Source of the DNA: Polyangiaceae bacterium
GTDB lineage: Bacteria > Myxococcota_A > Polyangia > Polyangiales > Polyangiaceae
Assembly: GCA_050287085.1 (NCBI GenBank)
Contig: JBNKBE010000016.1
Span: forward strand, 1-64,000
DNA: 64,000 bases
Reading direction: 5' to 3'
The translations under genes and the position numbers were made by a program. Shown here one piece after another: positions 40,918 through 59,111 of this stretch (position 1 is the first letter of the stretch; every line of letters starts with the position of its first letter). The notes under the pieces were generated by a model. It was not told the origin of the DNA, searched no databases, and saw nothing but the letters and a program-made list of their open reading frames with translations.

Positions 40918-42660
40918 CTACAGGGCGTCGATTGTAGCTTCCTGATGGGCTACTACGATGGGGGTTCGGTCAGCGGCCTCATACAGGCTTTGAAAGCGTT
41001 GAACCTCTGGTGTTTCGTACTCGAATAGTTCAGCTGCATAACGTGGTGAAAGCGATTGGTACAGCAGCTTGACAGAGATCTGAAGGGGCGGCTCAGCGCC
41101 GGACACGTCGATCCTGTATCCGACGCTATCGCTTCCCGCCTCGAAGTCATCGTCGCCGTCAACCCCCACCGGTCTCATCCAGGCAATGTCGGGGTGAGAT
41201 AGGGAAAAGCCTTTCGGGAGCAGGCGATTGTCCTTGCCGTAGTGGCTGCCTCGCAGAAGGCTGTAGGTGGGCGCATCTTCGTCGTTGAGCATTACCGATT
41301 CGAGTACATAAACCTCTGGGCTCTTGTCGATCTCGTCCCGGTGCACTTGGAACGGGCCGCCGACGAGTTCGCTGGGCAGAGGGCGCCCCTTGGCGTCGAT
41401 CAGCGTTCCGGACTCATCGAAGGCGCCGGAGTGTAGCAGCGTATTGCCCCGTGCATCTTCAATCCGAGCTTCGAGCCAGGCGCGCCGCGCGGGATGACCC
41501 GTGGGGAATTTGTGACCGGCTAGATTGATGACCTCAACGTCCAAGCGGAGTTCGGTTGTCGTGAGTTCAAGTGTTAAGTTGAGGTCGGCGGTATTGTGTT
41601 GGAGCTGCTCTGTTGCCAGTTGAATCGTTGCATCGAAAGCGGCCCGTGGCGCAGAAACGTCGAGTGCTGCAGCGTTGTCGCGCAAGATGGCAGGTATCAG
41701 CGTGTTGCCCCCAACGAAGATGTGCTGGGCGTACGGTTCTCGCTCGCTCAATCTGGGGAAGTCCATCCCCCCTGGATTGCGTGCCAGGGCGGACTTGATT
41801 GTGATGCCGTCTGCGCTCTCGTGTGGCATGTGACAACTCTGGCAGCTCCGCCCTTGGGCGTTCTTCGTCTCGTCGTTGAACGCGGAGTTCTTCCATTCCA
41901 GATAGGGGGCCTGTTCTGGCAGTACTCCAACCTCCAAGCCATCGACGGAAAGCGCGTGGGTCTGCAAAGTGTGGCACGTAGCACAGAGCGCGGACGCTTG
42001 AACGTGCTTGGCGTCTTCCGGTGTGAAGCCGGAAAATCGTTGCATGGGCATGGCAAACGGGTTCGGATGAGGGCCATAGATTCGGGCCTGGTCGTTGAGT
42101 TGGAATCCGCCGGAGAAGGAGCGTTCCTCGCCCAGATTGTCGCTTTCGATCTGATGGCAGACAGCACACGACACACCGTCGCGAGCTAGCCAACCCGCTT
42201 GGCTAGATTCATCGATTCGCGTCAGATCTGCACCGCTTTCCGACATTGGGGAATGGCAGCGCATACATTTCGCCTCGATGGCTGAGCGAGCGGATGGAAA
42301 CTGCGCCACCTCTGCTGACACCGCGGCGCGCCATAGCGGATCGCGCGCGGCATTGGCCATCATGCTCGAGCGCCACAGATCGAAGAATCCCACTGAACGG
42401 CCTCGATCGTCTCGCATGGCGTCCGCGCCGGCGCTGTTGCTGTGGCACTCAGCGCACACCTCAGAGCTAGCCAACTTGACCTGCGAGGTCGAACGACCAT
42501 TGCCGTCAAGCACTGAAACCGAGCTGGGTGTGGTTCCTGCGGCGTCCCCACCCGGTTTGCGACCCATACAGCCTGGAGCGGCCAGCGCGCCAGCGAGTAC
42601 CGTGGCGGCGACATATTGCGAGTGATATAGGGCCATCTGCATGAGTGAAGCATGGGTCAT
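40918..42660 (-). CDS. Pentaheme c-type cytochrome lipoprotein (c554/c552-like N-terminal heme domain)
   Basis: CAECH, CMRCH, CAVCH, CATCH, CQSCH; W..SMMANAARDP; GHKFPTG; DNRL.P.GF; APGC lipobox-like. Confidence 0.85.
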   Translation of the reverse strand: MTHASLMQMALYHSQYVAATVLAGALAAPGCMGRKPGGDAAGTTPSSVSVLDGNGRSTSQVKLASSEVCAECHSNSAGADAMRDDRGRSVGFFDLWRSSMMANAARDPLWRAAVSAEVAQFPSARSAIEAKCMRCHSPMSESGADLTRIDESSQAGWLARDGVSCAVCHQIESDNLGEERSFSGGFQLNDQARIYGPHPNPFAMPMQRFSGFTPEDAKHVQASALCATCHTLQTHALSVDGLEVGVLPEQAPYLEWKNSAFNDETKNAQGRSCQSCHMPHESADGITIKSALARNPGGMDFPRLSEREPYAQHIFVGGNTLIPAILRDNAAALDVSAPRAAFDATIQLATEQLQHNTADLNLTLELTTTELRLDVEVINLAGHKFPTGHPARRAWLEARIEDARGNTLLHSGAFDESGTLIDAKGRPLPSELVGGPFQVHRDEIDKSPEVYVLESVMLNDEDAPTYSLLRGSHYGKDNRLLPKGFSLSHPDIAWMRPVGVDGDDDFEAGSDSVGYRIDVSGAEPPLQISVKLLYQSLSPRYAAELFEYETPEVQRFQSLYEAADRTPIVVAHQEATIDAL

Positions 42661-48731: not shown

Positions 48732-49139
48732 TCAGCGGCTCGCGGTCAACACTTTCGGCGAGAAAGCGATCATGCCGCACAACTGCTTCAGTTGAGGAGC
48801 ATGGTCCAGCACGTCGTCGTACGACCACGCTGCTTCGTTGAGCCACTCGCCCGCGACCTCAACGTCCCAGTAGCTTGCGTCTCCCTTGAGGGGGCAATGC
48901 GTTCGTTTTGCTGTGGGGCGCAGCTGGCTATCGAAGAGCTTGCGTTCGAAGTACACCGATTCTGGATAGGTTGTCTTGTAGGTCTCGCGCAGAACCAGTG
49001 CCTCCGCGCTGGCGCCTTCCACTTTCGCCAGGGCTGCAGGGATTGGGCGCACTTCGCGTACTAGACTCATGAAGTGCGCCGGCTCATTGGGCCGGCGGAT
49101 GAGAGTGGGCGACGGGTCTGTGAGGGGGGATCCTGTCAT
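48732..49139 (-). CDS. DUF427 domain protein
   Basis: L.E....VYF, THCPLKGDASYW, AAWSY, IAF. Start uncertain. Confidence 0.8.
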   Translation of the reverse strand: MTGSPLTDPSPTLIRRPNEPAHFMSLVREVRPIPAALAKVEGASAEALVLRETYKTTYPESVYFERKLFDSQLRPTAKRTHCPLKGDASYWDVEVAGEWLNEAAWSYDDVLDHAPQLKQLCGMIAFSPKVLTASR

Positions 49140-49327: not shown

Positions 49328-50215
49328 CTAGGGCTGCGATTGGCCTTGAGCTGGCGCCGCACCACTCGCTGGTGTTCCGACCCCATGGGGATTGGTCGGT
49401 GTTGCGGTCCCAGGTGAGACGGCGTTTGCTGCTGCCGTTGTTTGGCTCCGACCCTGTTCGGCCTTGGCCGCGATGGCCTTGATGGCCTCGAGGGTCGCTC
49501 CGTCCTTGGCTGCGGCTCCACTAGAGGCGGGCTCGGACGTCTTGCCAAGGATCTTGGCGTTCTCAAGCAACACCGCGTAGTGATAGCCGAGACCCAGATC
49601 GACATCGCGCCGAAGAGCGGCCTCCACGGTGACGACGTCGCCCAATTCGGCATCCGCGTTGGTTGTGACCGTGACGTCGTTGGTGCCTTGCTGGGCACTT
49701 CCGCTGCCATCACGCATGTGCAGGTAGGTCAATCCTTTGATGCCCCCGGTCTTGCGCACCACCGTGCCCGCAATGCGCACCGGTTTGCCCTCAAGCGATT
49801 CGACCTGTTGGTATAATTCTTCGATGGTGCGTCCTAACGCGCCCGCAGGCTTCGCTACCTTCTGTACTGGAATGTCGGGCTCTGCGTGCAGCGTGACATG
49901 AGGGTTCTCGTGCGGGTTTCCGGTTTCGCTCTCGGCGTCTACGCTCCCCGCGCGGGCCTGGCGATGGATCTCGTCGTTGGGCGCCTGGACTCCGTCCAAC
50001 GTCGTGCCCACCGGGCCCGCGACGACAGCTGGCGCTGGAGACGGCGCCGCGGCGGTACTCGCGCTTGCGGGTGGCTTACCGTTTCCGTCCAACCAGAATG
50101 CGCCTATCCCCGCGAGAGCAAGGACCCCTATGAGCACGTGCGGCAACTTGACGTAGCCGGGGGGCACCGCCGGGGTATTCTGATCTCCCTTTTCGTCTAG
50201 AATCTTGGTCGCCAT
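49328..50215 (-). CDS. Membrane-anchored OB-fold protein (NrfJ-like), last gene of the cytochrome operon
   Basis: TM helix; NPHENPH; V.IAGTVVRK.GGIKG.TYLH.RDGSG...DVTVTT...GDVVTV...DVDLGLGYHY.VLLE.A. Overlaps the upstream gene. Confidence 0.7.
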   Translation of the reverse strand: MATKILDEKGDQNTPAVPPGYVKLPHVLIGVLALAGIGAFWLDGNGKPPASASTAAAPSPAPAVVAGPVGTTLDGVQAPNDEIHRQARAGSVDAESETGNPHENPHVTLHAEPDIPVQKVAKPAGALGRTIEELYQQVESLEGKPVRIAGTVVRKTGGIKGLTYLHMRDGSGSAQQGTNDVTVTTNADAELGDVVTVEAALRRDVDLGLGYHYAVLLENAKILGKTSEPASSGAAAKDGATLEAIKAIAAKAEQGRSQTTAAANAVSPGTATPTNPHGVGTPASGAAPAQGQSQP

Positions 50216-52002
50216 ATCATTGCTCCTTGCACAACAATTACATTCACGTCGCGGCTGGTAATGTAGTCACCACTCGCCATCGCGGATATGTCATCGCCGA
50301 TGTACGCCGTGACGTCGGTGCCGATATCGTGCTCCAGGAAGCTGGAGTCATCGGCTCGGTAGCGCCCAAGCGCTGGTCGGTAACGGCCAGTCACATCGAG
50401 GGTCCCGGACAGTAGCGGTGCACCGACCGCAAGGACACCCGCGGTAGTCGTGAAGAAGGACCCGGAAGCATACATGCCGTTGACGCCCACGCGCAGGGGA
50501 CCTGCCACGTTTTGCAACTGCGCGCCGGCAAAGGCGGACAGGTTTTGTGAGTCGGCAAGCGCCGAGGTAACTGCGCTAGCTCCCAAGAATGCAGACCAAT
50601 CCTCGTCGCGATAGTTGGCCTGTAGACCGCCGCTGTAGCGGGTTTCAACGGCCTGGCAGGGTTCGTTGCCCGTACTGCCGCCAATGGGCGTCATCTGGCA
50701 GAACCACCCCGGTGGCAGATAAGACGCGATGAAGCGAGAGCGTTCAGGGCGTTGCAGGGCGAGTTGGCCGCCTACCTCAACCCGTCCCAGTCGGTAGCTA
50801 CCGTAGGCGGCCGCCTGAGTGAGTTCCGCAGAATCGGCACCCCACGGATTATCGGCGTCATAGAAGGAAGCCTCGAAGTTGGCACCAGCGAGCAGATTTC
50901 CCCCGAAGATGTCAAACGAGCCTGCGACCCTACGCTCGTCGAGCTCGCCACCGAAGGTGCTGCCGTAGGCAACGAGAGAGGCGCTTGGCGCGAGCTCGGC
51001 ATCCAAATCATTCCAGGTCAGCTCCGCGCCGAAGCGCGAGGCGCGACCTACGACGCCCCCCCCTAGCGGATCGGGCAGAACCCCACCGAACGCTGCTGCG
51101 TCGATGTCTGGGGCAACTCGTGCTTGGACGCGGGCGCCGTCGAGTGCTCCGAGCAGTCGGGCCGCTGCACGCAGGCGACCCGCCGCAGCCAACCAATCGT
51201 TGTCCGTTCCGTAGGTGGCCTGAAGTTGTCGAATCCGCAGGGGTTGGCGTGCGGCGTCACCGCGCCGCAATGCGAGCTCGCCGTTGGAAAACCAGCCGCG
51301 AGCCGCCAGATCTGCGTCGATAGCCAGGGGTTGAGCCTTGAGGGGTTCTAGGTGAACACGGGCTCTAAGCTGAGCGTTGCTGATGGCGGCTCTGCCGTCT
51401 CGTTGCGGCAGCACGCTGGCGGCGGTCAGAGCGAGCATCGCGTAGCTCCGGCGATGGTCGCTCATCTTGCCCAGGGGTATTGGGCTTGGGTTCTGGCTGT
51501 CGGCTGGAACTGTCGCCTCTGGCCAGCGATTCGAGAAGGACTCAAGCGGCTCGGGTGTGGGGAGCTTCTTGGCCTCTGTCGAGTCGGCCTCCGGAGTTAG
51601 TGTTGCGACGCCAACGGCGCCCGGTTTGACCACTTGCTCACCGAGGTCGACGGCGATGAAAGTGCCTGCGACACTGACCACATCAAAGGACTGCCGTCCC
51701 AGGGTGACTTTGTCGCCGAGGGAGGCCCGTTGTTTAGTGCCGACCAATTCTAGGTAGGCTCGTCCCCCGGAAACGTCGACGACCTTGGCTCGAACTCGCT
51801 GCGATCGAAGGGGCTTTGAGGACCTCTTGGCTTTGGGCGCTGACCCGGCGGGCACCGCTTGGGTCTTGGCGCCGGACCGGGAGCGCTTGGAGGGGGCAGC
51901 CACGGCGTACGTGGCCTCCAAGGCAAACATCATTGTGAAGGCCACCGTCAGCATTCGGCGATCCTGGCTGCGCCGCAGTGGAGAGATGCCAAAGGGGCTC
52001 AT
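50197..52002 (-). CDS. Putative outer-membrane beta-barrel protein
   Basis: Signal peptide, many alternating amphipathic strands, C-terminal ..GAMIWRPRF with terminal Phe; ATGA-coupled to the decaheme gene. Confidence 0.7.
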   Translation of the reverse strand: MSPFGISPLRRSQDRRMLTVAFTMMFALEATYAVAAPSKRSRSGAKTQAVPAGSAPKAKRSSKPLRSQRVRAKVVDVSGGRAYLELVGTKQRASLGDKVTLGRQSFDVVSVAGTFIAVDLGEQVVKPGAVGVATLTPEADSTEAKKLPTPEPLESFSNRWPEATVPADSQNPSPIPLGKMSDHRRSYAMLALTAASVLPQRDGRAAISNAQLRARVHLEPLKAQPLAIDADLAARGWFSNGELALRRGDAARQPLRIRQLQATYGTDNDWLAAAGRLRAAARLLGALDGARVQARVAPDIDAAAFGGVLPDPLGGGVVGRASRFGAELTWNDLDAELAPSASLVAYGSTFGGELDERRVAGSFDIFGGNLLAGANFEASFYDADNPWGADSAELTQAAAYGSYRLGRVEVGGQLALQRPERSRFIASYLPPGWFCQMTPIGGSTGNEPCQAVETRYSGGLQANYRDEDWSAFLGASAVTSALADSQNLSAFAGAQLQNVAGPLRVGVNGMYASGSFFTTTAGVLAVGAPLLSGTLDVTGRYRPALGRYRADDSSFLEHDIGTDVTAYIGDDISAMASGDYITSRDVNVIVVQGAMIWRPRF

Positions 52003-53123
52003 CGAGCTATTCCTCCAGGGTGACAGCCGAGGCAGCGCTGGCCTTGCACGGCGCTGCCTACTACTTGATTCGGATGCGCCTTAGCGAGGGCTGCTGCATT
52101 GTGTTGATGACAGCCGGCACAGGTGATGGCCTGAGGACGTGTTGTGGAAAGGTGGCAGTCACCGCATTGCGCCGAGCGGTGTGGACCCGTGGACAGCGTA
52201 AACACCATGTCGTGGCGCAACTCCACACGCAACGCCGATTGGGTGCTGTCGACGGAGTTGAAGCGCGAGCTTGTCACGAAGGCCGGTACCCACCCGCTTG
52301 CTCGATGGCATTGACCACAATCCCGCGGAAAAGGCGGTTGGTCCGGATCACCTGCAACACCGGTGTGCAGCGGGTGAATGTTGGGGCTCCGATATTGATC
52401 CGCATGGCAGGCAAAACAGTCAGCCGGGACGGGCTGAAATTCGTTGGTGGCGGTCGAGGTCCGCTGGTGACACTCGGTGCAGTCCAACAACGCATGCACG
52501 CCGGTCAAGGGCAAACGGCTGGTTCGGTGACGCGCGATGGCACGCGTGTCAAACCAACTTCGCGAAGAATGACAGTCGCCGCAGCGCTGCCCCAGGCGCC
52601 GACCGTGTACGTCCTCGTGACAGCCCGAACAGTCGCGTGTGATGGTGCGTTCGGCGGTATGGCAGTCGCCACAGGCCGCCTTCGAGTGTTGGCCCGTCAA
52701 GGGAAAGCCCGTGCGCGAGTGATCGAACCCACCCCCCGCACCAGCGCTGCCCGCTAGTTGCTTCCAAGTGTCCTGTTCGTGACACGCGGAACAGTCGAGG
52801 CTCGCAGTGACGCCCTTGTGGCGGGGCACGCGGCTGGGCTTGGGCTTCGCCGGAGGCCTCGGTCTTGTGTTGGACTTGGCCGCAGCGCTTGAGTTGCTTG
52901 CGGCGCTTGAGTTGCTTGCGGCGCCGGGTTGGGCCGGCGCGCTGCCAGTTGCAGAACCACCCGCTCTGACGGCGCTACTAGCGACTGGGGCCGTGGCTGC
53001 AGCGGAGCTCCTGCCACTCGCTTTGCTGGTTCCAGCGGGGCTCGGCGAAGGATACAACAAGGCAGCAGAAACCCCTGCCGCAACGCATACGCTCAGTAGC
53101 AGCGTTCCTAGGTTACCTCGCAT
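51999..53123 (-). CDS. Decaheme c-type cytochrome
   Basis: 10 CxxCH counted; H...FPLTGxH distal-His motifs; signal peptide plus Ala/Ser/Pro linker. Start ATG 53123 overlaps the upstream stop. Confidence 0.9.
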   Translation of the reverse strand: MRGNLGTLLLSVCVAAGVSAALLYPSPSPAGTSKASGRSSAAATAPVASSAVRAGGSATGSAPAQPGAASNSSAASNSSAAAKSNTRPRPPAKPKPSRVPRHKGVTASLDCSACHEQDTWKQLAGSAGAGGGFDHSRTGFPLTGQHSKAACGDCHTAERTITRDCSGCHEDVHGRRLGQRCGDCHSSRSWFDTRAIARHRTSRLPLTGVHALLDCTECHQRTSTATNEFQPVPADCFACHADQYRSPNIHPLHTGVAGDPDQPPFPRDCGQCHRASGWVPAFVTSSRFNSVDSTQSALRVELRHDMVFTLSTGPHRSAQCGDCHLSTTRPQAITCAGCHQHNAAALAKAHPNQVVGSAVQGQRCLGCHPGGIAR

Positions 53124-54963
53124 TGGAAGAGCTCCCTTCCTCTGCTGGTGCGTGCGGATCGGCGTGGCAGTCCCGACAGGTGTTGTATGGCAAGCGGTAG
53201 CGAACGGCGCTCGTTCCCTGCGCAAGCTTCGTCGACTGATGGCAACTTTCGCACTTCAGGGTCGCGTGTTTGCCTTGCAGCTCGTAGCCCGTCATCTCGG
53301 TATGATTGAATTCAGGGAGTTTGAACTTCCAAGGCGTGTGGCAATCGCCGCAGTCGCGTTTGGGCTCCGTCAATCGGAATTGCCCTTGATGAATGTCCTG
53401 ATGGCACCCTTCGCATTCCCGAGGGGCGTCTTTGTAGCTGGCGCCGCGGCCCGCCTTGCGATCTTCGGGCGTCGGCGAATGACATTGGTCGCAACGTGCG
53501 CTTGCGTGGGCCCCAATCAGCGGCCAGGTATCATGCGCGATATTGGGCAGATCCCACGCCAGCGGGCTGTGGCAATGGGCACAGCCACCCTGCTGCATCT
53601 CTTTTCGAAACTGGTCGCCGTGTGGATTGTCGTGGCACTTTTCACACTTCTGGTTCTCGAGCTTCCAGTTCAAGCGCTGCTTCTGCTTGAAGTTGTCGTG
53701 ACAGGTGCCACAAGGCACCGCTTGATGATTGCCGATCAGTGGAAAGGCTGTGGTCGCATGAAGCTGAACCCCAAACTGACTCGGCCGAAAGCCCGCATCG
53801 GTGTGGCATGCGCCGCATTCACCCCCGTTTCGCGCGGAGAATTCACCTTGGTGTTTGTCGTCGTGGCAATCTATACATCGCTCGAACTTCAGCTCGCGGA
53901 AGCGCTTCTGGGGGATTAGCTCCGGGGAGTGACATTCCGTACACGCTACGTCAACGTGTTTGCCGGTCAGGGCGAATGGGGTCTTGTCGTGGGCGTCCAA
54001 GCCCACTTGCCGCGGCAGCCCTAGCCACTTGATGCCCTTGTGGCATTGGGCGCAGTTGTTGCCAAAGTTGGCCTCGTGAATGGGTGCGTGGCAGCCCACG
54101 CAACGTGTGCCACGGGAAGGCTTCTTCAACAGTCCGCGGTCGTGGCATTGCTTGCAAGAGGCCTTGCTATGGCCACCGAAGAGGCTGAGACCGGGGTGCG
54201 CCGACCGCTTCATGTCGATCGACTTCCAACTGTCGTTGTTGTGGCAGCCGGTGCACACGTCGCCGAAGCGCCCCGCATGAGGGTCCTCGTGGCAGTTGCC
54301 ACACCGCTGGAAGGGCAATTGGTACTTAGCGGGGACGCCGTGACACTTGGCGCAATCGACCTTCTGATGGGCTCCAAGCAACTTGAAGCGCGCCAAGTCA
54401 TGATTGAAGTCGTGCAGCGCGACGACGTCGAAACGCCCCTGATTGTGGCAGTCGAGGCACTCATTGCCGAAGCGCCCTTTGTGGGGATCCTGATGGCAAC
54501 TGGCGCAACTTGAAGAGAGGCCCAGATAGGTCTTCGCGCCGCGACGATTGACTCGATTGTGGCAGGAGTTGCAATCCAGACCCGCGTGTGCGTCTTGGAG
54601 CTTCCAGCCCGACAGGGCGTGGTCAAAGGAACGAGGGTTCCAGCGGATGAGCCGCGAGCCGCGCCCGCGGTGGTCGACGTGGCAGTTGGCGCAGCTTTGC
54701 CCCTTGTAGTTGCGGCCGTGCAGACCTGTGCCGCGGGCTAGTGTGGCACCGACGTCGTCATGGCAGGCGGTGCACTTGCCATTCTCGATTTGGCGACCGG
54801 CCGTATGACAGTCACTACAATGGGCGTCCCCATCCAAGTGAGCATGACCGCCGGCCAAGTCACCCGGTGACAGGAACTGCGCATATGCCGGCGCCGAGCC
54901 TAGGACCAGGACGGCTACGACCAGCGATAACGTCCGTCGCAGGACTATTCGGACCAAATCCAT
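53113..54963 (-). CDS. 23-heme periplasmic c-type cytochrome
   Basis: 23 CxxCH counted in triheme modules (H..F.L.GxH-CxxCH-CxxCH.DPH-CxxCH); signal peptide ending AYA. Start ATG 54963. Confidence 0.92.
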   Translation of the reverse strand: MDLVRIVLRRTLSLVVAVLVLGSAPAYAQFLSPGDLAGGHAHLDGDAHCSDCHTAGRQIENGKCTACHDDVGATLARGTGLHGRNYKGQSCANCHVDHRGRGSRLIRWNPRSFDHALSGWKLQDAHAGLDCNSCHNRVNRRGAKTYLGLSSSCASCHQDPHKGRFGNECLDCHNQGRFDVVALHDFNHDLARFKLLGAHQKVDCAKCHGVPAKYQLPFQRCGNCHEDPHAGRFGDVCTGCHNNDSWKSIDMKRSAHPGLSLFGGHSKASCKQCHDRGLLKKPSRGTRCVGCHAPIHEANFGNNCAQCHKGIKWLGLPRQVGLDAHDKTPFALTGKHVDVACTECHSPELIPQKRFRELKFERCIDCHDDKHQGEFSARNGGECGACHTDAGFRPSQFGVQLHATTAFPLIGNHQAVPCGTCHDNFKQKQRLNWKLENQKCEKCHDNPHGDQFRKEMQQGGCAHCHSPLAWDLPNIAHDTWPLIGAHASARCDQCHSPTPEDRKAGRGASYKDAPRECEGCHQDIHQGQFRLTEPKRDCGDCHTPWKFKLPEFNHTEMTGYELQGKHATLKCESCHQSTKLAQGTSAVRYRLPYNTCRDCHADPHAPAEEGSSSNAR

Positions 54964-55862
54964 CGGAAGCCGTAGTACCAGGCGATGGCGATGTGGACGA
55001 TGACGGTGAACGTCATCAGAAGAGCCGCGAAGCGATGAAACCCGCGCCATGCCCGCAAGAGGGAATCGGCGGCGTGGGCACGAAGTTCGTTGTAGGCGAT
55101 GGTAGCACACTGCTGCACCGTCGGTTCGAGCAGGTTGAAGCGGTCCGAGGCAGAGAAACGAAATGGTTCAGCCGCCGCTATCACACTGCGTCGCCGCTCG
55201 ACAGCTTCTCGCCGCCACCGTGGTAGCATGCGTAGCGTTTTGGGCAGCGTGTGGCGCCCCTGAATCGGCGACGGTTGGAGCGAGGTGAGCTCGCTCTTGA
55301 GAGCCTTTCCTAGGCCCGGTACTTGAGCGTCGAGCTCCTGAAGCCCTTGGGCCAACAAGGTCAGGTTGGGGTGAGGTACCAGCGACTTCAAGAAGCGACC
55401 GATGATGCCCGTCACCATGAGAACAACCACACACCAGAAGCTGGTGGAGGCGATGCTGGAGCGCAGCTGAAACGCTGAATGAAAGAGGATGAGAGCGCCG
55501 CCAAGGATACCCGTTACGGCGTGAATCTCGAGCCACAGCTTCATCTTTCCGACGCGCCAGCGGGCAAAGCGGCGGCGCATCAGGTAGGTCAGATTCGTCA
55601 GAAAAAGCGCGGTTCCGACGATGCCATAGCCGTGACCCACCATGCCGCCGGGGCTGAGCACTCGGAACTGACTGTGATCGACGCGAGAATCGATGCCCAA
55701 TTCGTAGAAGTCTGCTCCGTAGGCCCAGATGAGTGCGGATGCAATAGCCGGTACGCCGAGCATTAGCGACGGCCATATCGCGCGAGAAAACAGTGATCCT
55801 TCGCGCGAATTGGAGGGGGCGGCGCCTGCGCCGTAAGATGGAGCGTCGAACGCTTGGCTCAT
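54945..55862 (-). CDS. Inner-membrane protein, putative di-heme b (ferric-reductase-like TM domain)
   Basis: ~5 TM helices; two H-X13-H pairs (WLEIH...LILFH and WRGFH...VIVH). Confidence 0.75.
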   Translation of the reverse strand: MSQAFDAPSYGAGAAPSNSREGSLFSRAIWPSLMLGVPAIASALIWAYGADFYELGIDSRVDHSQFRVLSPGGMVGHGYGIVGTALFLTNLTYLMRRRFARWRVGKMKLWLEIHAVTGILGGALILFHSAFQLRSSIASTSFWCVVVLMVTGIIGRFLKSLVPHPNLTLLAQGLQELDAQVPGLGKALKSELTSLQPSPIQGRHTLPKTLRMLPRWRREAVERRRSVIAAAEPFRFSASDRFNLLEPTVQQCATIAYNELRAHAADSLLRAWRGFHRFAALLMTFTVIVHIAIAWYYGFRWIWSE

Positions 55863-55889
55863 AGTGACGATAGGTCCTGGCGAATCAGC

Positions 55890-57221
55890 TTAACGTTCGC
55901 CGTACTTGGTTACCATATCCACTCCGAAGCTCTTCAGAAGCTGAGACGGAGGGGTGCCACCAATCTGCACGATAATGGCGTCGTTAGGTATCTGCTTTGG
56001 GCCGTTCTCTGTCAACAGTGTAACCCGCGAGTCCGTTAGTTCTGAGATGGTGGTTGTCATATGGGCGGTGACCTGACCACTTGCGATCATCGCATCGATA
56101 CGGGTGCGGTTCTCTGCCCTGCAGCGCGCAAATTGTCCGCGCCGATAGCTGATACCAACGGAGGCACACTGGCCGAAGTCAGCTAGAGCGATAGCCGATT
56201 CAACAGCGCTGTTGCCGCCGCCCACGACCAATACGTTCTTCCCTGCATAGGGATCGGGCTCCAACAGGCGATAGGCGACCTTCTTATTGTCCTCTCCGGG
56301 GACGCCAAGTTTGCGCGGAGAGCCGCGAACGCCCAGGGCAAGTACCACGTTGGCCGCGCGGTATTCACCGCCCGTGCTGACAACACGCCACGTGTTTTCG
56401 TCATGCGGCAGAATTTGCTCGACGAGTTCTCCAGAGCGCAGCGGAGGACTGGTCTTTGAGCGAATGTCTTCCCACACGTCGACCAGTTGCTCTTTGGACA
56501 TCGTCTTGCGTTTGACGCGACCGTAGAGTGGAAGGTTCAGGTCGCCCGTCATGACCACCTTGGCTCGGGGGTAGTGCAGGACTGTGCCGCCAAAGGATTC
56601 GCGGTCGAGCAACACGACGTTCAGGCCAGCTTCCATCAGGCGCAACGTTGCGCTGATTCCGGCTGGGCCCGCTCCGATCACCACCGCATCGAGTGCCCCT
56701 CCAACGCCTCGACGCGGTGGCTTGTCTTCATCGGGGGAGCCAGAGACGATGTGATCTGCGGCCTGACGGCCCTGATTGATCGCGTTTGCGATCAGTCCCA
56801 TCCCACCCAGTTCCCCAGCGATGTAGATGCCGGGGCGATTGGTCTGGAAGTGGGGATCGACTCGGGGTAGCTCAACACCCCGTTTGCGAGTGCCGTACAC
56901 GAGCGTGATGGCGTCGATGGGGCAGGCGGCCTCGCAGACGCCGTGACCGATGCAGCCGAGTGGGTTGATGAGCTTCGCTCGGCCTTGCACCAATCCAATG
57001 ACGTTCTTCTCAGGACAGCCCTTCACACACGCCCCCGACCCGATGCAGACGTAGGGGTCAATTTGAGGCGCGAGACTGGCGGCCACTAAGTCATCCATGC
57101 CGCTGAGATCTTGAACTATCTTGGCGGACTTAGATTCCTTGTGGCCGTCCAGACGCTCCCACAGGATGTAGAAGAGAAGGGAGAGCAAGACGAGGGCTCC
57201 GAAGAGTACTGCGGTCGTCAA
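55890..57221 (-). CDS. Membrane-anchored ferredoxin plus FAD/NAD(P)H oxidoreductase (TrxR/FNR-like)
   Basis: N-terminal TM; CxxSxxCxxxCP and CxxHxxCxxxCP; GIYIAGE; VIGAGPAG; VVGGGNSAVESA; SYRR. TTG start with a purine-rich RBS. Confidence 0.88.
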   Translation of the reverse strand: MTTAVLFGALVLLSLLFYILWERLDGHKESKSAKIVQDLSGMDDLVAASLAPQIDPYVCIGSGACVKGCPEKNVIGLVQGRAKLINPLGCIGHGVCEAACPIDAITLVYGTRKRGVELPRVDPHFQTNRPGIYIAGELGGMGLIANAINQGRQAADHIVSGSPDEDKPPRRGVGGALDAVVIGAGPAGISATLRLMEAGLNVVLLDRESFGGTVLHYPRAKVVMTGDLNLPLYGRVKRKTMSKEQLVDVWEDIRSKTSPPLRSGELVEQILPHDENTWRVVSTGGEYRAANVVLALGVRGSPRKLGVPGEDNKKVAYRLLEPDPYAGKNVLVVGGGNSAVESAIALADFGQCASVGISYRRGQFARCRAENRTRIDAMIASGQVTAHMTTTISELTDSRVTLLTENGPKQIPNDAIIVQIGGTPPSQLLKSFGVDMVTKYGER

Positions 57222-57239
57222 TGAGAGCTGTCCTGTTCC

Positions 57240-59111
57240 TTAGTCGTCTTCTGCGCGGCCGTCGCGGTGGCAGTTCAAGCAGAAGTTCACCGGTGCGTCG
57301 CCGCGGGGGTAGTTGCCCACATCGTTGTGTTCTCGGTCCATGCGGGCCCTGCTGTGAACGCCGGTGTGGCAGTTGACGCAGTCGGTATTGCCAGCTCCAT
57401 TCGGCCCAAGTTCGGGCTTGTGGCAGTCGTTGCAGGCAAAGCCGCTGTGGCGACCGCTACTGATGCGGAACTGGGCGTCGGGGTGTAGGCCACCACTGGC
57501 AGGCTTCCAGCCGCTGGTAGAGTGGCAGTCGGCGCAGGTGGTGGGGAAGTCGGAGTGCCCGGGGTAAGGGCTGCGATCGTAGTCGTCACGGTGGCAACCG
57601 ACGCATTCCTCGGGAGCATTGTCGTAGACCGGTGGATCGCCGGTGTGGCAGCTGGCGCAGCTGGTCGACGCGTGAGCGCCGGTCAGAGGCCACGGATGCT
57701 GGAAGCTCGGTCCGATGGAGGCGGGGCGCCATCCGTCGTTGCTGTGGCATTCCGAGCAATTGGTGGAGAATCCACTATGGTCGAGCGCAGCACCGGCGCG
57801 GTCATCATCGTGGCAATCGATACACTCGGTGGGAGTCCCTTCGTAGACGGGGGGCTCGCCGGTGTGGCAGTCGCCGCAGCTGGTCATGGCGTGAACGCCA
57901 TTGAGCGGCCACGAGTGAACGAAGTTGGGGCCTATGCTGGCAGGCTTCCATCCGTCATTGCTATGACACTCGGCGCAGTTCGTCGAGAAGTTGCTATGAT
58001 CGGGGGATGCTACGTTGTTGCGGTCATCGCCGTGGCAATCGATACACTCGGTGGGAGTCCCTTCGTAGACGGGGGGCTCGCCGGTGTGGCAGTCGCTGCA
58101 GCTGGTCATGGCGTGAACGCCATTGAGCGGCCAGGAATGCTTGAAGCTGGGGCCTATGCTGGCAGGCTTCCATCCGTTGTTGCTATGACACTCGGCGCAA
58201 TTCGTCGAGAAGTCGCTATGATCGGGCGAGGCAACGTTGTTGCGGTCATCGCTGTGGCAATCGATGCACTCGGTGGGAGTTCCCTCGTAGACAGGGGGCT
58301 CGCCGGTATGGCAGTCGCTGCAGCTGGTCATGGCGTGAACGCCATTGAGCGGCCACGAGTGCTTGAAGCTGGGGCCTATGTTCGCGGGCTTCCAGCCTTG
58401 GTCGCTGTGGCACTCGGAGCAGTTGGTCGAGAAGTCGCTGTGGTCCGGCGATATTACGTTGTCTCGGTCGTCGCTGTGACAGTCGATGCACTCAGTAGGC
58501 GTACCGTCGTAGACGGGTGGGTCGCCCACGTGGCAGCTCGAGCAGGGCGCAGCAGCATGTTCTCCCTCCAGGGGCCACGGATGTACAAAGCGCGCCGCGC
58601 TGCCGACGAGGGTGGCCGGCGACCAGGCGTCAGTTGTATGGCACGTCTGACACTCTTCTGGGAACGCACTGTGGTTCGGTTGAGTCACCTGATCGCGATC
58701 GTCGCGGTGACAGCCGATACACTCCTCAGGCGTGTTTGCGAAGACGACGGGCTCGCCGGTATGGCAACTGCTACATTGGGCGGCACCGTGAGCGCCGGTC
58801 AGCGGCCATTCGTGAGAGAACCCGGGGGCAGGCGACCAGAACTTCTCGCTATGGCAGTCCTCGCACGTCTCGGGCATGACTCCGACGTGCAAGGGGTTTG
58901 TCGCTTCGGCAAACTCATCGAGGTGGCAGCTCGCGCAGTCGCCAGAGACAACCGGGTGATGGTCCTCGACCTCCTGGCAAGCCGTGTTCGCTAGCGCGCC
59001 CAATGCAAGCATGAACCCGGCCATGCCGGCACGAGTTCCGCGCTTCTGCCTTGTGTGTCCGACCGGGGTTGTTTGGTCGGTCCCTTCCCTACACTGGTCG
59101 CCGTTAGCCAT
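57240..59111 (-). CDS. 23-heme c-type cytochrome lipoprotein with tandem triheme repeats
   Basis: 23 CxxCH counted; lipobox-like LANTAC; 74-aa repeats HSWPLNGVH-CxxCH-CIDCH-PDH-CxECH. Confidence 0.92.
   Translation of the reverse strand: MANGDQCREGTDQTTPVGHTRQKRGTRAGMAGFMLALGALANTACQEVEDHHPVVSGDCASCHLDEFAEATNPLHVGVMPETCEDCHSEKFWSPAPGFSHEWPLTGAHGAAQCSSCHTGEPVVFANTPEECIGCHRDDRDQVTQPNHSAFPEECQTCHTTDAWSPATLVGSAARFVHPWPLEGEHAAAPCSSCHVGDPPVYDGTPTECIDCHSDDRDNVISPDHSDFSTNCSECHSDQGWKPANIGPSFKHSWPLNGVHAMTSCSDCHTGEPPVYEGTPTECIDCHSDDRNNVASPDHSDFSTNCAECHSNNGWKPASIGPSFKHSWPLNGVHAMTSCSDCHTGEPPVYEGTPTECIDCHGDDRNNVASPDHSNFSTNCAECHSNDGWKPASIGPNFVHSWPLNGVHAMTSCGDCHTGEPPVYEGTPTECIDCHDDDRAGAALDHSGFSTNCSECHSNDGWRPASIGPSFQHPWPLTGAHASTSCASCHTGDPPVYDNAPEECVGCHRDDYDRSPYPGHSDFPTTCADCHSTSGWKPASGGLHPDAQFRISSGRHSGFACNDCHKPELGPNGAGNTDCVNCHTGVHSRARMDREHNDVGNYPRGDAPVNFCLNCHRDGRAEDD
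57500..58820. repeat. ~222-bp tandem repeat (about 6 units, central ones near-identical)
   Basis: cagctggtcatggcgtgaacgccattgagcggcca recurs at 57877, 58099 and 58321 (period 222). Confidence 0.9.

Follow-up and report, generated by a model that had tools for sequence, protein, structure and literature searches.

The porin-cytochrome conduits of Shewanella (MtrCAB) and Geobacter (Pcc) cross the outer membrane by means of a periplasmic decaheme cytochrome, a β-barrel and an outer lipoprotein cytochrome, and are fed by quinol oxidases; to our knowledge, the characterized Gram-negative conduits draw on the quinone pool. Here, we analyze a seven-gene cluster encoding three multiheme c-type cytochromes in a 64,000-nucleotide stretch of DNA (the window) from a Polyangiaceae bacterium (contig JBNKBE010000016.1). 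The cluster resembles MtrCAB and Pcc in its outer-membrane parts, has no family-level sequence match to them, and appears to be fed by an NADPH module instead of quinol oxidases. We hold with moderate confidence that it is a quinone-independent, outward conduit that would carry electrons from NADPH to the cell surface.

The closest described systems are in print as genomic predictions. He, Barco, Emerson and Roden (2017, PMC5566968) defined the inner-membrane protein (IMP) of the PCC3 and PCC4 clusters by a WX3HX13H motif on each of helices 3 and 5 and an SGXXG motif on helix 4, and proposed that this protein, which they likened to cytochrome b, holds two b hemes and exchanges electrons with quinones; PCC3 as published, in the portions of the account available to us, is a four-gene model that has no flavoprotein and uses quinones. 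Elbon, Stewart and Glass (2024, 10.1101/2023.11.21.568154) describe ptdA–G, of unknown function, as a porin, an FAD/NAD(P)-binding oxidoreductase, a cNMP/Fe–S protein, a ferric-reductase-like protein and cytochromes with 5, 4 and 10 hemes, which matches He's PCC4 in its heme counts and is equated with it here. PCC3 has been cited as a possible iron oxidase and candidate iron-oxidation marker. The preliminary description of this locus, made from the sequence alone, had supposed that uncharacterized homologous clusters probably exist and knew of no experimentally characterized system of this architecture; PCC3/PCC4 and ptd bear out the former, and none was found in the literature examined for the latter. 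The parts list is already published, while the NADPH-entry mechanism was not found in the PCC3, PCC4 and ptd accounts examined, nor was any link between PCC3 and a flavoprotein, in a literature coverage that excludes subscription journals, figure gene maps and some supplements.

The seven genes are as follows, in gene order:

57240–59111, minus strand: 23-heme lipoprotein c-type cytochrome, by CxxCH count, with lipobox LANTA-C46.
55890–57221, minus strand: membrane-anchored protein with two predicted [4Fe-4S] clusters and a circularly permuted FAD/NADPH oxidoreductase of thioredoxin reductase (TrxR) fold, similar to YpdA and ferredoxin-NADP+ reductase (FNR), by Pfam/NCBIfam and solved relatives; TTG start.
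54945–55862, minus strand: five-helix IMP of PCC3/PCC4 type and TGxxG subfamily, predicted to carry two b hemes and bearing two WX3HX13H motifs, by motifs, hydropathy and profile match.
53113–54963, minus strand: 23-heme c-type cytochrome, by CxxCH count, that has an ordinary signal peptide and may span the periplasm as a wire (the longest open frame starts at 55110).
51999–53123, minus strand: decaheme c-type cytochrome, by CxxCH count, with a signal peptide and an Ala/Ser-rich linker; candidate barrel-inserted cytochrome from gene order.
50197–52002, minus strand: 601-aa outer-membrane β-barrel with 22 strands in an AlphaFold2 model and a terminal Phe.
49328–50215, minus strand: membrane-anchored protein with a weak Pfam OB-fold match and a His/Pro-rich linker; putative accessory protein.

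As had been described, the genes are co-oriented, running from 59111 to 49328, and nearly abut or overlap, with gaps of 18 and 27 bp followed by overlaps of 19, 11, 4 (ATGA) and 19 bp when starts at 54963 and 53123 are used; our count of CxxCH motifs likewise gives 56 (23 in 57240–59111, 23 in 53113–54963 and 10 in 51999–53123). An origin by chance or artefact is ruled out by these counts, by the existence of related loci, and by the rarity of such frames, since only 11 reading frames in the whole 6.2-Mb genome hold at least three CxxCH motifs and only 4 hold at least ten, 3 of which belong to the cluster. As far as reading frames show, the cluster is real and intact. Its closest named relative, locus L001 of a Polyangiaceae metagenome-assembled genome, is ~70% identical. 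A search of the ESM Atlas returned unnamed clusters only. A search for a σ70-like promoter found none for the cluster. The suggested check for heme c maturation genes elsewhere in the genome returned CcmE above the cut-off, and CcmF-like and CcmC-like proteins below the NCBIfam cut-offs.

The proposed entry module begins with the flavoprotein, in which Pfam recognizes 4Fe-4S dicluster and Pyr_redox domains. Its best solved relatives are YpdA/Bdr (bacillithiol disulfide reductase; 7a7b, 7a76) and TrxR-type FNRs (with 3ab1 in the comparison), with which it shares a TrxR fold lacking CxxC and an NADPH-type motif. In contrast to these enzymes, where the G-x-Y-I-x-G-E/D segment is C-terminal, here this segment precedes GxGxxG, and the fold is therefore circularly permuted; the chain further includes a ferredoxin with a His substitution and a membrane anchor. 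Among 166 unique domains of this family, His replaces the second Cys of Fe–S motif 2 in 161 of the 162 that have the residue, position 2 of Fe–S motif 1 is S in 96, C in 62 and T in 3, and the nicotinamide site reads GxGxxA with a conserved Arg after SY, which points to a preference for NADPH. The CxxC dithiol occurs in 0/166, ruling out identity as a thioredoxin reductase, and a score of 146.8 bits against the NCBIfam YpdA cut-off of 339.9 rules out a YpdA ortholog. An anchor helix is present in 155/170 flavoproteins, with 4.8 Lys/Arg after it versus 0.4 before it, and a Tat motif is absent, so that the flavoprotein domain should face the cytoplasm. A periplasmic flavoprotein, which had been named as a threat to the model, is ruled out by this anchor charge, the missing Tat motif and the topology of the fusions described below. 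The family is found in 31/301 sampled Bacteroidota-phylum genomes (E 1e-100) and in 102/301 Myxococcota-phylum genomes (E 1e-60, paralogs included).

The putative acceptor of these electrons, the IMP, has 305 aa and five hydrophobic peaks in its hydropathy profile. The two H-X13-H pairs noted previously are present as W110-x3-H114-x13-H128 and W272-x3-H276-x13-H290, and the W and H residues of both motifs are invariant in 86/86 aligned homologs. The loop after helix 2 is rich in Arg/Lys (4.8 K/R versus 0.1 D/E). An N-in/C-out topology would place H114/H276 on the cytoplasmic side and H128/H290 on the periplasmic side, with both pairs running the same way. On helix 4, the window IMP has TGxxG where the PCC3 definition has SGXXG; the first residue is T in 46/65 Polyangia-type domains and S in 26/26 Bacteroidota and 70/70 PCC3-like metagenome domains, and TGxxG is a conservative variant of SGxxG. 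In a midpoint-rooted tree of 61 rows subsampled from 184 domains, the window IMP groups in a branch of Polyangia sequences, separate from those of Bacteroidota and of the 21-heme type. The profiles of the window family and of the 21-heme PCC3-like IMPs nevertheless match with probability 99.6 and E 6.5e-25, indicating that the two subfamilies are homologous. Pfam gives a weak DUF4405 match.

Across genomes, the flavoprotein and the IMP travel together in Myxococcota, Bacteroidota and Steroidobacteraceae, whichever of the two genes is taken as the starting point. When loci are selected by the IMP (the best 80 of 132 genome loci), the flavoprotein is found in 70/80 and a barrel homolog in 67/80, with 9 of the 10 loci that miss the flavoprotein being cut on one side; the core partners are thus linked when checked for co-conservation, as had been proposed. 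When Bacteroidota loci are instead selected by the flavoprotein (30 of the 31 matching genomes, the set's center genome being left out), a barrel homolog is found in 29/30 and the IMP in 23/30, with all 7 IMP misses at contig or fetch ends. The corresponding Myxococcota set consists of 20 loci chosen for long contigs, and the IMP is present in 17 of its 18 strong loci, the other two being weaker and ptd-like. We note that these counts are descriptive only, as related genomes are not independent.

What does not hold across genomes is the single-strand seven-gene operon of the preliminary description as a unit. Homologs of the OB gene occur in 8/80 IMP-selected loci (11 loci overall), and the flavoprotein gene lies on the opposite strand in 50/70 loci, which is the usual arrangement in Polyangia; an obligate seven-gene operon is ruled out on both grounds. 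The conserved core consists of five components, with the co-oriented seven-gene form being local. A plasmid of Emticicia oligotrophica DSM 17448 carries, in one run, ccsA, the IMP, the flavoprotein, cytochromes of 23 and 40 hemes, a barrel homolog and an OB gene, the product of which is labelled "GW dipeptide domain-containing protein". Prolixibacter denitrificans DSM 27267 also holds the cluster (locus L068). That the OB protein might be an NrfJ- or CcmE-like maturation factor found no useful support in a literature search.

The two entry proteins are also found as single chains. Fusions of the IMP to the flavoprotein occur in 24 of the 150 best representative IMP homologs (15 whole, 9 partial or interrupted), with named carriers in Myxococcaceae/Archangiaceae and Anaeromyxobacteraceae, and one of them has the reverse domain order; in both orders, the flavoprotein is cytoplasmic and the helix polarity is the same. 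Distant IMP-family members, some of which have a pentaheme c domain at their C-terminus, adjoin other types of NAD(P)H flavoprotein (FNR with 2Fe-2S, and Pyr_redox with FHA alongside cNMP/Fe–S proteins), so that pairing with a nicotinamide enzyme recurs. Such near-constant linkage, repeated fusion and the three flavoprotein types are left unexplained by the quinone-linked conduit of He et al., in which the di-heme b protein would give electrons to, or accept them from, the pool of quinones (as in Fe(II) oxidation, for example) and the flavoprotein would be an NADPH:quinone side branch or a regulator, and we consider that arrangement unlikely here; no quinone-binding motif was found either, although none was specifically sought. 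It draws support from the cytochrome b likeness of the motif on which quinone exchange was originally proposed (PMC5566968), from the rise of PCC3 IMP transcripts in iron-oxidizing Sideroxydans CL21 (10.1101/2025.02.27.639646), and from the host's own respiratory genes (an aa3 oxidase beside alternative-complex-III-like genes, and a cbb3 oxidase), which could use incoming electrons. The E. coli protein MsrQ bears on both sides, as PMC12525009 reports that it binds quinone and co-purifies with ubiquinone, and that its redox data favor NAD(P)H/Fre over quinol as the donor.

Beyond the inner membrane, Pfam finds cytochrome c7/c3 repeats in all three cytochromes. The 53113–54963 cytochrome has 24 aa per heme and 28 further His, with 20 or 23 hemes in relatives; in Polyangia loci, its gene comes immediately after that for the IMP. 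Most of its homologs have no lipobox-like signal, and with its profile the 21-heme cytochromes found in PCC3-like loci score ~290–385 bits. Decaheme homologs have 10 hemes in 51/54 cases and a lipobox-like signal in only 6/54, and the decaheme gene sits between the 23-heme and barrel genes. Homologs of the lipoprotein cytochrome, which have 4–29 hemes, show a lipobox-like signal in 49/69 cases, and the window protein is a candidate outer-membrane or surface extension that would be exposed on the cell. In long Bacteroidota cytochromes (one unrelated 19-heme protein being left out), the lipoprotein profile gives the best score for the last 10 hemes in 28/28 cases and the decaheme profile for the first 10 in 20/28, by narrow margins. 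Because these cytochromes join such segments, the window decaheme and lipoprotein cytochromes may be two pieces of one outward chain. The heme number of the terminal cytochrome ranges from 4 to 82 across relatives; loci L074, L076 and L150 carry 82, 73 and 76 CxxCH motifs, respectively, in one chain.

The 601-aa protein with a terminal Phe had been put forward as a β-barrel, and the fold check bears this out: the AlphaFold2 model of residues 34–601 (pLDDT 88.1, pTM 0.69) has 22 consecutive strands by DSSP, preceded by a 68-residue β domain and a low-confidence linker. Its fold matches are outer-membrane barrels, the best (Z 17.9, rmsd 4.7 over 362 residues, aligning model residues 149–568) being 22-strand receptors minus their plug region, whereas Pfam and NCBIfam give no match for the protein. 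A TonB-dependent receptor fits in size and was rejected, as the ~150-aa N-terminal plug is missing, only residues 149–568 align and there is no Pfam match. Membership of MtrAB/MtoAB was likewise rejected, with no TIGR03508 match for the decaheme cytochrome and 43.5 bits for the lipoprotein against the DmsE/MtrA cut-off of 192.2; MtrB ranks 48 among generic barrels in the fold search. The barrel gene comes after that for the decaheme cytochrome in Polyangia loci, and this order, together with the MtrAB analogy, suggests that the decaheme cytochrome threads the barrel.

A wire fed by NADPH could instead stop in the periplasm or at the inside of the outer membrane, where it would store electrons or supply reductant to enzymes of the envelope, to iron assimilation or to O2/superoxide chemistry, with the barrel acting in export or assembly and not in conduction. 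The unplugged 22-strand barrel after the decaheme gene argues against this. The spread of terminal heme numbers, expected for an outward extension, and the tendency of the Bacteroidota segments to form one chain point the same way, as does the absence from the 96.8%-complete genome of a lytic polysaccharide monooxygenase (LPMO) gene (no PF03067 match), a result that also rules out reductant supply to LPMOs as the function. A periplasmic ending, to which we assign a low probability, would be compatible with the fact that lipoproteins need not face the cell exterior, with several flavoprotein-selected loci without a detectable barrel, with porinless related clusters (Table S6 of PMC5566968, and L122, L142 and L143), and with aerobes among the hosts, such as Emticicia oligotrophica.

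Our preferred reading, the outward conduit, would work as follows, with cofactor binding, subunit contacts, surface exposure, direction and acceptor all being predicted. Cytoplasmic NADPH would reduce the FAD of the anchored flavoprotein, and the two [4Fe-4S] clusters, one of them His-substituted, would hand single electrons to the cytoplasm-side heme b (H114/H276) and from there to the periplasm-side heme b (H128/H290), in the fashion of NOX and ferric reductases. The 23-heme cytochrome would span the periplasm and deliver to the decaheme cytochrome inside the 22-strand barrel, with the 23-heme lipoprotein prolonging the wire at the outer membrane. No energy would be conserved, since charge would move off the negative side with no pump involved, and the membrane potential would be slightly discharged; as outward transfer would be both helped by and discharging this potential, the cluster would serve as an outlet for reductant and not for respiration. 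The likely use would be to dump surplus reductant on, or deliver it to, extracellular acceptors such as Fe/Mn oxides, humics or partner cells.

The preliminary description had treated outward and inward transfer as equal options, and this part of it does not stand. With NADP+ at about −320 mV and an opposing membrane potential of about −150 mV, we calculate that inward NADP+ reduction through the same chain would need an extracellular donor near −470 mV or lower. We therefore regard an inward conduit as very improbable, notwithstanding that TrxR-type FNRs are reversible and porin-cytochrome wires are generally known to run both ways. Also in favor of inward flow, iron oxidizers are among the reported holders of PCC3, and Prolixibacter denitrificans is named in listings of papers on Fe0 corrosion, although the title of one of these, PMC8368055, blames nitrite for Prolixibacter corrosion. 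The other part of the earlier proposal, a conduit entered through an NAD(P)H flavoprotein, Fe–S clusters and a di-heme b protein, is retained as the reading suggested by co-conservation, the fusions in both orders, the topology signals and the barrel model.

Several observations weigh against the outward NADPH conduit. The IMP has no match to the ferric-reductase family PF01794 at E 0.01, though both His pairs are present, and a PDB sequence search with its profile gave helical-repeat noise only, with no meaningful solved relative. Locus L013, which is uncut, lacks the flavoprotein within 10 kb, L138 and L121 have the flavoprotein without the IMP, and the flavoprotein gene is, as noted above, often divergent. 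Only 8 of the 18 strong Myxococcota loci selected by the flavoprotein gave a barrel homolog, and in some of the others the wire may stop in the periplasm or run through a barrel missed by the profiles. The link between the barrels is one-way, as the Polyangia profile matches the Bacteroidota barrels at E 8e-15 to 8e-6, while the reverse search gives E 0.18. The host looks aerobic, with few other multiheme cytochromes and no indicated acceptor. Finally, the quinone binding of MsrQ and the published reading of the same four-histidine protein as quinone-active (PMC5566968) belong here as well.

Taking these points into account, the cluster appears to be a Polyangia variant of PCC3-grade clusters. 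It shares with PCC3 the ~300-aa five-helix IMP with two WX3HX13H motifs, a 20–23-heme periplasmic cytochrome beside it with ~24 aa per heme (the PCC3 median is 21 hemes), and a further large repeat cytochrome with a barrel, for which the PCC3 criterion is at least 20 strands and 22 are modelled here. It would not be a strict PCC3 member, because of its motif variant (TGxxG for SGxxG, in a separate IMP branch) and its outer cytochrome, which is split into decaheme and lipoprotein and seems not to be of the Ser/Thr/Ala/Gly-rich type; in Myxococcota loci of the 21-heme type, the outer cytochromes (11–21 hemes) give low scores with both the decaheme and the lipoprotein profile. This comparison uses the published description and proxy loci in place of the sequences of named members (Sideroxydans ES-1, Leptothrix cholodnii). 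The proxies are the best 80 of 539 metagenome loci with the second IMP subfamily; the 29 of at least 8 kb fit the PCC3 description in IMP length, SG motif and 21-heme cytochrome, and they mostly have a very long Ser/Thr/Ala/Gly-rich cytochrome of up to 76 hemes. The same flavoprotein is carried, divergently, by 27 of these 29, the other two being cut upstream, and 6 of the 8 PCC3-like metagenome clusters looked up have Steroidobacteraceae members.

Neither does the cluster appear to be a PCC4/ptd or Mtr member. Compared by listed parts, PCC4/ptd likewise combines a porin, multiheme cytochromes, a ferric-reductase-like IMP, an Fe–S protein and an FAD/NAD(P) oxidoreductase in one cluster, but has its own cytochromes of 5, 4 and 10 hemes and a cNMP/Fe–S protein, has no 20–23-heme wire and is defined without a large extracellular cytochrome; Pfam finds no cNMP domain among the seven window proteins. 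With NOX/ferric reductases and MsrQ with Fre (PMC12525009), the predicted entry shares a membrane-spanning carrier of b hemes with four His, electrons that move outward, and a cytoplasmic NAD(P)H flavoprotein that is either a chain of its own or fused to the carrier; it differs in its five helices against the six of the ferric-reductase fold, the lack of a PF01794 match, a TrxR-fold flavoprotein with a ferredoxin instead of an FNR-fold protein or Fre, and output to a multiheme wire. Our best reading, by analogy, is that the cluster functions as a NOX-like entry feeding an Mtr-like outlet. A Bacteroidetes cluster with six multiheme cytochromes and a barrel was enriched on an anode (PMC8258643).

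If the NADPH-wired conduit is correct, no energy would be conserved, which would change the meaning of PCC3 presence in metagenomes. A broader proposal, which we advance only tentatively and would not yet bet on, is that PCC3-grade clusters as a class, candidate iron-oxidation markers included, are NOX-like exporters, in which a permuted NADPH flavoprotein and a di-heme b protein would feed a 40–100-heme wire. Such a quinone-free route would let aerobic or facultative heterotrophs (myxobacteria, Bacteroidota, Steroidobacteraceae) push reductant to the surface at the cost of membrane potential and, if class-wide, would give Gram-negative bacteria a second principle of extracellular electron transfer, serving redox balance or chemistry outside the cell and not respiration. 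These ideas are directly testable in the natural single-chain flavoprotein–IMP fusions and in the cultured, non-pathogenic hosts Emticicia oligotrophica DSM 17448 and Prolixibacter denitrificans DSM 27267.

A number of further observations concern related loci. At L081:8145-11186, a 1013-aa chain combines a cNMP-like N-terminus (by eye, with no Pfam match), Fe–S motifs, a permuted flavoprotein and an IMP domain, and is preceded by a 30-heme cytochrome gene. In the host's own genus, L082:8362-15495 and L083 carry an IMP–pentaheme fusion beside a cNMP/Fe–S protein and a Pyr_redox protein with FHA domains, possibly a regulated redox module. The ptd-like loci L122:3552-10845, L142 and L143 encode a pentaheme protein and, in direct fusion with the flavoprotein, a tetraheme domain; no barrel was detected in them, and L122 additionally has a cNMP/Fe–S/membrane protein. 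A gene for a CcsA-type heme lyase of 930–1050 aa adjoins the cluster in Bacteroidota loci L089, L095, L068, L073 and L075, while in L014, L057 and L071 the cluster genes are in pieces (frameshifts or assembly errors).

Elsewhere in the window, a DUF427 gene (48732–49139, minus strand) lies co-oriented 188 bp past the OB gene and has no homologs in the fetched loci. A 580-aa pentaheme protein (40918–42660, minus strand) stands alone with no NCBIfam match, and is weakly similar (E 1e-12 to 4e-7) to pentaheme domains fused to IMPs or present in ptd-like loci (L082, L142, L143, L122). The genome's only other decaheme gene (L224:3116-6450; C1 ~223100–226450) follows genes for a NirB-like flavoprotein and a nitrate-type ABC transporter.

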